Program-made: the position numbers and the translations under genes
In this document: positions 193 through 861 of the stretch, one piece after another
How positions within the stretch are numbered: position 1 is the first letter of the stretch
How the letters are laid out: each line of letters starts with the position of its first letter
NCBI RefSeq assembly: GCF_003334765.1
Contig: NZ_QOWT01000090.1
Direction: 5' to 3' (one strand)
DNA length: 1,014 bases
Source of the DNA: Escherichia coli
GTDB lineage: Bacteria > Pseudomonadota > Gammaproteobacteria > Enterobacterales > Enterobacteriaceae
Notes under the pieces: model-generated
The model's database searches: none
The model's input: the letters and a program-made list of their open reading frames with translations, nothing else
What the model was told of the DNA's origin: nothing

Positions 193-861
193 ATGGTGAA
201 ATTAATGAAAAAAAACACAGATGATGGGGCTAAAATTTACACACCACTTACCCTAAAGCTTTATGACTGGTGGGTTTTGGGAGTATCAAATCGGCTTGCA
301 TGGGGATGTCCTACAAAGGAACACCTTCTTCCACACTTTCTGGAACATTTAGGTAACAACCATCTGGATATTGGTGTTGGAACTGGGTTTTACCTTACTC
401 ACGTACCTGAGAGTAGTCTGATATCTTTAATGGATTTGAACGAAGCTAGCCTGAACGCGGCATCTACAAGGGCTGGGGAATCAAAAATTAAACATAAAAT
501 TAGCCATGATGTTTTTGAACCTTATCCCGCGGCGTTACATGGTCAATTTGATTCCATTTCCATGTTTTACCTTCTTCACTGCCTGCCTGGAAATATATCT
601 ACAAAAAGCTGTGTAATACGCAATGCGGCGCAGGCCTTAACTGACGATGGAACTCTATACGGAGCCACAATTCTTGGCGATGGAGTTGTGCACAATAGCT
701 TCGGTCAAAAACTGATGCGCATTTACAATCAGAAAGGCATCTTTTCAAACACAAAAGATTCCGAAGAAGGCTTAACACATATACTCTCAGAGCATTTCGA
801 GAATGTTAAAACCAAGGTTCAAGGTACTGTAGTAATGTTTTCCGCTTCAGGGAAAAAATAG
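193..861 (+). CDS. Class I SAM-dependent methyltransferase (Rossmann fold), substrate unknown; alternative start at 205 gives 218 aa
   Basis: Single long ORF in the provided track (222 aa, stop TAG 859-861). Residue numbers count from Met at 193. Motif I LDIGVGTG at aa 58-65 (nt 364-387). Acidic post-I residue D81 in SLMDLNE. Motif II GQFDSISMFYLL at aa 117-128 (nt 541-576). Motif III-like LTDDGTLYGATIL at aa 149-161. N-terminal aromatic segment YDWWVLGVSNRLAW precedes motif I. No DPPY/NPPY or PC/ENV motifs. Confidence 0.85.
   Translation: MVKLMKKNTDDGAKIYTPLTLKLYDWWVLGVSNRLAWGCPTKEHLLPHFLEHLGNNHLDIGVGTGFYLTHVPESSLISLMDLNEASLNAASTRAGESKIKHKISHDVFEPYPAALHGQFDSISMFYLLHCLPGNISTKSCVIRNAAQALTDDGTLYGATILGDGVVHNSFGQKLMRIYNQKGIFSNTKDSEEGLTHILSEHFENVKTKVQGTVVMFSASGKK
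195..199 (+). promoter_or_regulatory. Shine-Dalgarno-like GGTGA serving the internal in-frame ATG at 205
   Basis: GGTGA matches the GGUGA portion of the extended anti-SD complement and lies 5 nt before ATG 205-207. No SD-like sequence precedes ATG 193-195 (upstream is caaataaaactataac). Confidence 0.35.

Follow-up and report, generated by a model that had tools for sequence, protein, structure and literature searches.

The low-GC block at about positions 137–861 of the 1,014-nt Escherichia coli sequence analysed here (hereafter the window) is probably the gene ybcY together with its own AT-rich promoter region, present as a moron-type gene in the variable arm downstream of tfa in DLP12-type prophages. 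The block starts in the AT-rich promoter region and finishes at the stop codon of the gene. The locus itself is the tfa/ybcY/tfaX segment of DLP12-type lambdoid prophages. The composition of ybcY is what horizontally acquired phage cargo ordinarily shows, and as such is already known.

The first-pass annotation had described a dip in GC content over the methyltransferase relative to both flanks, using counts made by hand. Exact counting returned the same four values: 69/136 (50.7%) for 1–136, 15/56 (26.8%) for the spacer at 137–192, 266/660 (40.3%) for 181–840, and 76/153 (49.7%) for 862–1014. The dip was confirmed by these counts and by the external references described below. The annotated open reading frame (193–861) has 273 G or C residues in 669 (40.8%), with GC1 of 49.8%, GC2 of 36.8% and GC3 of 35.9%, and ybcY alone (205–861) has a GC content of 41.1% and a GC3 of 35.6%. 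The reading frame differed from both flanks by Fisher’s test (p = 0.0086), and 137–861 differed from the remainder of the window by a likelihood-ratio test (p = 0.0025). A free scan for the best-scoring segment, with a minimum length of 300 nt, returned 135–860, which is near-exactly the intergenic region plus the reading frame; the log-likelihood ratio of this segment was equalled by 12.5% of shuffled windows and was not significant. Segmentation with two change points chose a 56-nt promoter stretch and not the gene, and the sharpest single compositional feature of the window is the stretch at 160–215, with a GC content of 16%. Judged from the 1-kb window alone, the dip is modest. It is the genome context that renders it convincing.

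At least 80% of the window was carried by 3790 of 5426 complete E. coli genomes (∼70%), in agreement with the reported presence of DLP12 in 74% of strains (PMC6379469), and many E. coli chromosomes were 100% identical to it. Positions 44–192 taken by themselves were matched in 3821 E. coli genomes, as against 3790 for the full window at the 80% threshold. In the cryptic prophage DLP12 of strain K-12 the gene order is tfaD, ybcY (a pseudogene, b0562), tfaX, appY and ompT. K-12 DLP12 resembles the window in gene order, in ∼99% nucleotide identity over 137–870, and in the promoter motif TTGATT-17-TATAAC. It differs in that its ybcY is inactivated by the deletion of 2 nt, which abolishes ATG205 and alters the reading frame, whereas the copy in the window is intact (218 or 222 aa, depending on the start codon). 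The intact protein is typical of most other E. coli, with 6589 member sequences in its 99%-identical cluster; frameshifted copies are also found in some strains besides K-12. The intact phages PhiR26_1 and 2G7b carry the order Tfa, YbcY, TfaX, hydrolase, OmpT and integrase, and in strain 042 the tfa/ybcY/tfaX module terminates a lambdoid prophage inserted at ompW. This synteny, and the near-identity with K-12 DLP12 and intact DLP12-like phages, place the window in the right arm of a DLP12-type lambdoid phage. The prevalence of ybcY in cryptic DLP12 remnants could be a matter of hitch-hiking with ompT.

Two genes flank ybcY, and both read on the minus strand. On the left, positions 1–43 (GC 48.8%) are the tfa-derived segment of tfaX, in which the left-hand copy of a long repeat has its inner end. 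They share ∼85–88% identity with an internal stretch in the 3′ part of tfa, both that of lambda and the adjacent one; past the left edge of the window the repeat copy reaches about −88 in PhiR26_1 and, in 042, about −183. Positions 44–136 are the unique 5′ part of tfaX, recognized from its ORF translation (MLPQHSDIEIAWYASIQQEPNGWKTVTTQFYIQEF), with an ATG at 136–134 and a GC content of 51.6%. tfaX is a chimera, with a unique 35-codon head fused in frame to a tfa-derived tail. The head at 44–136 matches positions 1–45 of phrog_2341 and has no homologue in lambda, and in the phage collection it is always accompanied by ybcY or a ybcY remnant. On the plus strand, PGAP labels about 38–118 as a DinI-family fragment in some genomes; a BLASTP comparison of this frame with one Citrobacter DinI returned nothing, and no NCBIfam model matched it. 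The divergent, AT-rich intergenic region at 137–192 contains the ybcY promoter candidates, and ybcY follows on the plus strand (205–861), identified by its open reading frame and by Pfam and PHROG matches, with a TAG stop at 859–861. On the right, 866–1014 is the second copy of the long repeat, defined by repeat alignments and read on the minus strand (GC 49.7%). It comprises a hairpin and the 3′ end of tfa, whose last 32 codons and stop lie at 916–1014 and match tail-fibre-assembly PHROGs. This copy extends past the window to about 1092, and within the window it is 86.8% identical to lambda 22459–22608.

Two promoter candidates were found ahead of ybcY. The first, TTGATT (164–169) and TATAAC (187–192) separated by 17 nt, was read directly in the window; the second, TTAACC (137–142) and CATAAT (159–164) separated by 16 nt, came from a promoter scan. 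For the K-12 spacer between ybcY and tfaX, Shimada et al. 2014 (PMC3946193) list a site bound by the RpoD holoenzyme in vitro by SELEX as well as an H-NS mark, and the promoter predicted there is TTGATT-17-TATAAC. The −10 element at 187–192 leaves hardly any leader ahead of ATG205. The TTAACC-16-CATAAT candidate leaves space for a GGTGA Shine-Dalgarno sequence before the same codon.

Between the convergent tfa and cargo genes lies a stable hairpin at 869–901, seen as an inverted repeat with a perfect 11-bp stem and an 11-nt loop. Its predicted folding energy is −23.0 kcal/mol (z = −6.3) for the plus strand; for the minus strand it is −28.5 kcal/mol (z = −5.4). Lambda, Ayreon, PhiR49_2 and SPF_0923 all have the hairpin; its sequence differs in lambda and SPF_0923, where folding is nevertheless predicted. 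No T-run or U-tract adjoins the hairpin, and a terminator scan came back empty. The hairpin serves as the mosaic junction described below; it may also be a bidirectional terminator or an RNA-end element, and we regard that role as putative.

Homologues of YbcY at 56–90% identity occur across the Enterobacterales and in Testudinibacter, in settings that vary with the host. In Enterobacter, Yersinia and Testudinibacter the gene is a stand-alone chromosomal gene amid housekeeping genes, and in Enterobacter the same housekeeping neighbourhood surrounds it in three assemblies. The Salmonella homologue lies between a phage integrase gene and a gene encoding a DUF4376 domain together with tail-fibre-related genes, and the Citrobacter homologue adjoins dinI. 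The GC content of the gene, compared with that of its flanks, was 39.3% against 51.4% in Enterobacter, 40.4% against 45.9% in Citrobacter, 41.9% against 45.6% in Salmonella, 43.3% against 45.1% in Yersinia, and 44.2% against 47.4% in Testudinibacter. The family therefore lies at 39–44% in every host examined, whatever the GC content of the host, and only in hosts of lower GC content does its composition look native.

This constant 39–44% across hosts could also reflect a constraint intrinsic to the family. On that rival reading, the low GC content is a selected property of the gene family or the locus, serving for example H-NS recruitment or promoter function, and is not the residue of a low-GC donor. 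Every homologue examined keeps to the same range in hosts of about 45% to about 55% GC, Enterobacter included; an H-NS mark is listed at this very spacer in K-12; and the most extreme AT stretch of the window is the regulatory region at 160–215. Against this, every codon position is depressed and the largest deficit falls at synonymous third positions (35.9% compared with 55.2% in the host). Many other accessory genes of the same phage share the bias, which is the general pattern of horizontally circulating cargo, and the gene differs little from its flanks in Yersinia and Testudinibacter, which would be expected of a native-like composition. We consider a purely intrinsic origin of the low GC content unlikely. 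It overlaps with horizontal acquisition by a phage, our main explanation, and does not exclude it.

We compared ybcY with a host reference of 102 ORFs of at least 600 nt taken from 169 kb of E. coli 042, which is a sample of one strain. In this sample, host ORFs had a GC content of 51.8 ± 4.3% and a GC3 of 55.2 ± 6.7%; ybcY lay at z = −2.56 and z = −2.87, respectively, in the 2nd percentile for each. Its Karlin codon-bias distance was 0.519, compared with 0.314 ± 0.084 for the host ORFs, which places it in the top 2%. Since GC content, GC3 and codon bias all fall in the extreme 2% of the 042 ORFs, the gene sits outside normal gene-to-gene variation in that sample. The intact phage PhiR26_1 gave a second reference. 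Its 62 genes have a mean GC content of 50.0% (SD 6.5%), and ybcY is the 5th lowest among them. The 23 genes of the late operon directly upstream of ybcY average 56.2 ± 2.9%, and ybcY is ∼5 SD lower. The other low-GC genes of PhiR26_1 are mostly accessory genes on the opposite strand (YbcV, PD-lambda-1, a lipoprotein, Bor, the hydrolase, OmpT and NmpC), joined by YbcW, a short plus-strand ORF. By GC content the phage genes form two groups, core and accessory, and ybcY sides with the known accessory genes. The ∼50% GC left flank of the window is a short island only: the complete arm on the left of tfa in DLP12-type phages, 4366 nt, has a GC content of 41.0%, a low-GC tract of ∼4.4 kb in intact phages. 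In composition, the block is foreign to the host as well as to the phage core, and the earlier suggestion of a foreign origin is supported.

Ordinary gene-to-gene variation in GC content, with no implication for ancestry, is a still less probable account of the dip. It would fit the non-significant free scan, the 5.9% of 669-nt windows in the 169 kb of 042 that are at or under 40.8% GC, and a z of only −1.4 for ybcY when it is set against all 62 PhiR26_1 genes. It does not fit a gene in the 2nd percentile of host ORFs for three measures together, nor a drop of ∼5 SD relative to the adjacent late operon, nor a deficit that is greatest at third codon positions. The grouping of ybcY with known accessory genes, and a right boundary that coincides with a mosaic junction, also argue against it.

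That junction is seen when related phages are compared. Lambda, PhiR49_2 and SPF_0923 share the sequence from 862/867 to 1014, and at this point they carry other cargo: ea47 in lambda, dinI in PhiR49_2 and sitCD in the Salmonella phage SPF_0923, all convergent with tfa. In phages Turner, Kati and PhiR68_2 the break lies at 901, and the tfa to which the module is joined is a different one. Each of the long repeats that flank the block is a copy of the 3′ end of tfa. Their inner edges fall at 43/44 and 865/866, so that the unique insert is 44–865 and takes in the unique head of tfaX, the AT-rich spacer and the ybcY gene. In PhiR26_1 the flanking repeat is 132 nt long with 87% identity; in 042 it covers 197 nt ungapped or ∼227 nt gapped, hairpin included, with ∼89% identity. 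Both have a period of 1049 nt.

The first-pass annotation had placed the GC shift at the boundaries of a shorter direct repeat, TGCTGCGGCA, and had read the enclosed segment as a cassette. The repeat is an exact 10-mer at 123–132, within codons 2–5 of tfaX, and at 894–903, in the 3′ arm of the conserved hairpin (plus-strand coordinates). The right edge proved to be a real junction, as just described; the reading of the 10-mer as the boundary is not supported, and we judge the repeat coincidental. A repeated 10-mer is present in 42% of dinucleotide shuffles of the window, which puts TGCTGCGGCA at chance level; its two copies lie 5–14 nt and 33–42 nt outside the GC shift; and the right copy pre-exists in lambda and other phages that lack ybcY. 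In addition, phage comparison and synthetic-junction queries in E. coli genomes found no collinear empty site lacking only ybcY. These queries joined 1–132 to 904–1014, and then 44–132 to 904–959, without enforcing collinearity. Matches reported as 100% covered in two pieces were rejected because they were non-collinear: owing to the tfa repeat, the right half matched the tfa copy left of tfaX in 042-type loci.

A discrete mobile cassette, whether integron-, transposon- or IS-like, with TGCTGCGGCA as its 10-bp target-site duplication, is accordingly very improbable: an exact 10-nt repeat does bracket the low-GC block, and its hypothetical excision would put an ORF beginning ATG-CCG-CAG-CAT 11 nt past the tfa stop, but the true repeats are the 132–227-nt tfa copies with other edges, no terminal inverted repeats were seen at the block edges and no transposase or integrase gene next to ybcY in the annotated regions inspected, the synthetic empty-site queries were matched only out of order, and the deletion of about 165–825 in phage Ayreon is internal and not a precise excision. 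The architecture speaks for homologous recombination at the end of tfa as the route of exchange, and not for a self-mobile cassette.

PGAP starts ybcY at ATG193 (222 aa). The probable start is ATG205 (218 aa) instead, given the position of the K-12 deletion at ATG205, an alignment with phrog_2132 that begins at residue 5, and the lengths and first Met of the homologues; most of these are 218 aa long with an invariant first Met. The best Pfam match is Methyltransf_12 (PF08242, 6.3e-9), followed by Methyltransf_23, 25 and 11 (PF13489, 1.6e-6; PF13649, 7.4e-6; PF08241, 6.2e-5), and the match to phrog_2132 has an E-value of 8e-157. No NCBIfam model reached its cutoff (17 bits compared with 175–180). 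The protein contains a SAM-binding motif I, HLDIGVGTG, and its AlphaFold2 model has a pLDDT of 91.4. With the glycine-rich motif I and the seven-strand Rossmann-like fold of the predicted structure, ybcY is assigned to the class I SAM-dependent methyltransferases. Relative to the Citrobacter copy its dN/dS is 0.20, and across 37 YbcY homologues there are 62 invariant columns, values that mark it as a functional protein-coding gene and indicate purifying selection.

We also considered whether YbcY might be a DNA methyltransferase. This identity is improbable: a regular-expression search of the 218-aa protein found neither form of the catalytic DNA-methyltransferase motif IV, (D/N/S)PP(Y/F/W/H) of N6A/N4C enzymes or PCQ of C5 enzymes, and no DNA methyltransferase stood among the listed top structural matches. 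The fold resembles class I methyltransferases acting on small molecules and lipids, namely a juvenile hormone acid methyltransferase (7ec0) and a bacterial phosphatidylethanolamine N-methyltransferase (8ys9), and further UbiG/Coq5, DhpI and BelI, at an identity of only 12–21% in a flat list with no standout match. The substrate is probably a small molecule or a lipid and not DNA. In size and shape, the YbcY fold is near that of the bacterial phosphatidylethanolamine N-methyltransferase. The literature consulted on ybcY gave no functional data beyond one SELEX promoter listing and mentions of synteny; a null phenotype is recorded once, for a ybcY mutant under Hha overexpression. Tentatively, and at rather long odds, YbcY could be a lysogenic-conversion enzyme, a prophage-borne small-molecule or lipid methyltransferase that purifying selection keeps in ∼70% of E. 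coli for modifying a host metabolite or envelope lipid. If so, its phenotype would have been missed because K-12 has a 2-bp frameshift at the start codon.

Capture and exchange by phages, our preferred explanation of the block, would run as follows. A temperate phage would have captured ybcY from a lower-GC lineage or gene pool, and homologous recombination, acting through the conserved 3′ end of tfa and the hairpin, would then have spread the gene; recombination of this kind would explain the tfa-derived direct repeats of 132–227 nt on both sides. In the lysogen, ybcY would probably be transcribed from its own sigma-70 promoter and probably be damped by H-NS, and the probable target of the enzyme would be a small molecule or a lipid, not DNA.

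The phage moron concept reportedly goes back to Juhala, Hendrix and co-workers in 2000. Like morons such as bor and lom, and like the b-region arm of lambda, where ea47 holds the corresponding position, ybcY is an extra gene in a variable position that reads against late-operon transcription, with its own promoter candidates, a 3′ hairpin and a composition unlike that of its neighbours. The position is variable in that ea47, dinI or sitCD occupies the same junction in related phages, and the composition is distinct at 40.8% GC for the reading frame compared with 56.2 ± 2.9% for the late operon. It is unlike them in that its hairpin has no U-tract, so that a terminator role is only putative, and in that it lies in a multi-gene low-GC arm (ybcY, hydrolase and ompT; 41% over 4.4 kb) and is not a single insert between otherwise adjacent genes. 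Lambdoid prophages of O157 and Salmonella carry exchangeable effector loci downstream of the tail-fibre genes, before the attachment site. ybcY shares with these loci its niche past the tail-fibre and tfa genes and a cargo that varies between related phages, and differs from them in that the cargo is a cytoplasmic methyltransferase. ybcY is already catalogued as an accessory, or moron, gene just past the tail-fibre genes and is no new kind of element.

It is a well-known rule that temperate phages have accessory genes richer in AT than either the phage core or the host. Our compositional finding meets this rule again at a locus already annotated in K-12 as ybcY of DLP12. The tfa 3′-end repeats and the junction at the hairpin suggest that cargo at the end of the tail-fibre genes is swapped by homologous recombination and not by cassette insertion. 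A methyltransferase that is intact and under purifying selection in most E. coli, and that is inactivated in K-12, is a reasonable, if minor, candidate for functional study.

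The copy of ybcY in K-12 bears directly on where translation of this methyltransferase begins. Aligned to the window, K-12 ybcY (L009 ~18805) carries a 2-nt deletion at window positions 205–206, by which TTAATGAAAAAAAAC becomes TTAAT--AAAAAAAC; outside this deletion the two genes are ~99% identical. The deletion abolishes ATG205 and throws the ATG at position 193, the start chosen by PGAP, out of frame, and K-12 ybcY is therefore a pseudogene. This lesion supports ATG205 as the true ybcY start, and it accounts for the lack of K-12 phenotypes.

Loss of ybcY took a different form in phage Ayreon. 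There (L003 ~1475–1540), the spacer upstream of the gene (window ~137–164) is fused directly to the final ~36 nt of ybcY (826–861), which makes this an internal deletion of the methyltransferase rather than its clean absence.

A hairpin lies directly downstream of tfa, at 869–901 in the window, at ~1503–1537 in lambda (L002) and at ~19817–19850 in locus L001. Its stem is a perfect 11 bp and very stable (dG −23 and −28.5 kcal/mol; z ~ −6). The hairpin is kept in lambda, Ayreon, PhiR49_2 and SPF_0923, and it marks the place at which cargo differs among phages. In lambda and SPF_0923, a C in the 5′ arm of the window's hairpin is replaced by A and a G in the 3′ arm by TT, and the lambda version is predicted to fold as well (−15.5 and −21.2 kcal/mol). 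No U-tract is adjacent to the hairpin at 869–901; it may serve as a terminator, in protection of RNA ends or as a recombination hotspot.

Among matches in the phage collection, MW057783.1, named “Campylobacter phage CJLB-4” (H58), aligns to the tfa end of the window with 86.8% identity, the same as lambda, at coordinates nearly those of lambda, and its length (48,361 nt) is lambda-like. This record looks like lambda sequence deposited as a Campylobacter phage; contamination or mislabelling may be the cause.

In PhiR26_1, the other strongly AT-rich genes are likewise accessory (L010 9690–11192, 19073–19606 and 43842–48207). GC content is 35.1% for PD-lambda-1, an annotated defence gene, 32.6% for YbcV and 41% across the 4.4 kb of the hydrolase and OmpT arm; cargo and core are separable in this phage by GC alone.

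Two other annotations fall within the window. WP_001309429.1, a 45-aa “hypothetical protein” placed by PGAP on the minus strand at 806–943, overlaps the 3′ end of ybcY, the hairpin and the 3′ end of tfa, and is probably a spurious ORF call. In some genomes PGAP also labels a putative incomplete DinI-family pseudogene on the plus strand at ~38–118 (L022 3038–3118; L024 2495–2574), antisense to the tfaX head. This putative fragment gave no match by BLASTP against one DinI or in an NCBIfam search. In PhiR49_2, a dinI gene is the cargo at the corresponding position; in Citrobacter, dinI adjoins the ybcY homologue. Should the DinI label be correct, the head of tfaX would be an antisense relic and no real gene.

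In E. coli O84:H7 Trh52 (L023 1403–4383), ompT and a frameshifted copy of ybcY, with fragments of tfa and of an integrase, adjoin tRNA-Arg. This locus is a minimal DLP12 remnant, and it illustrates how far this prophage can decay with its ompT-ybcY end still kept.
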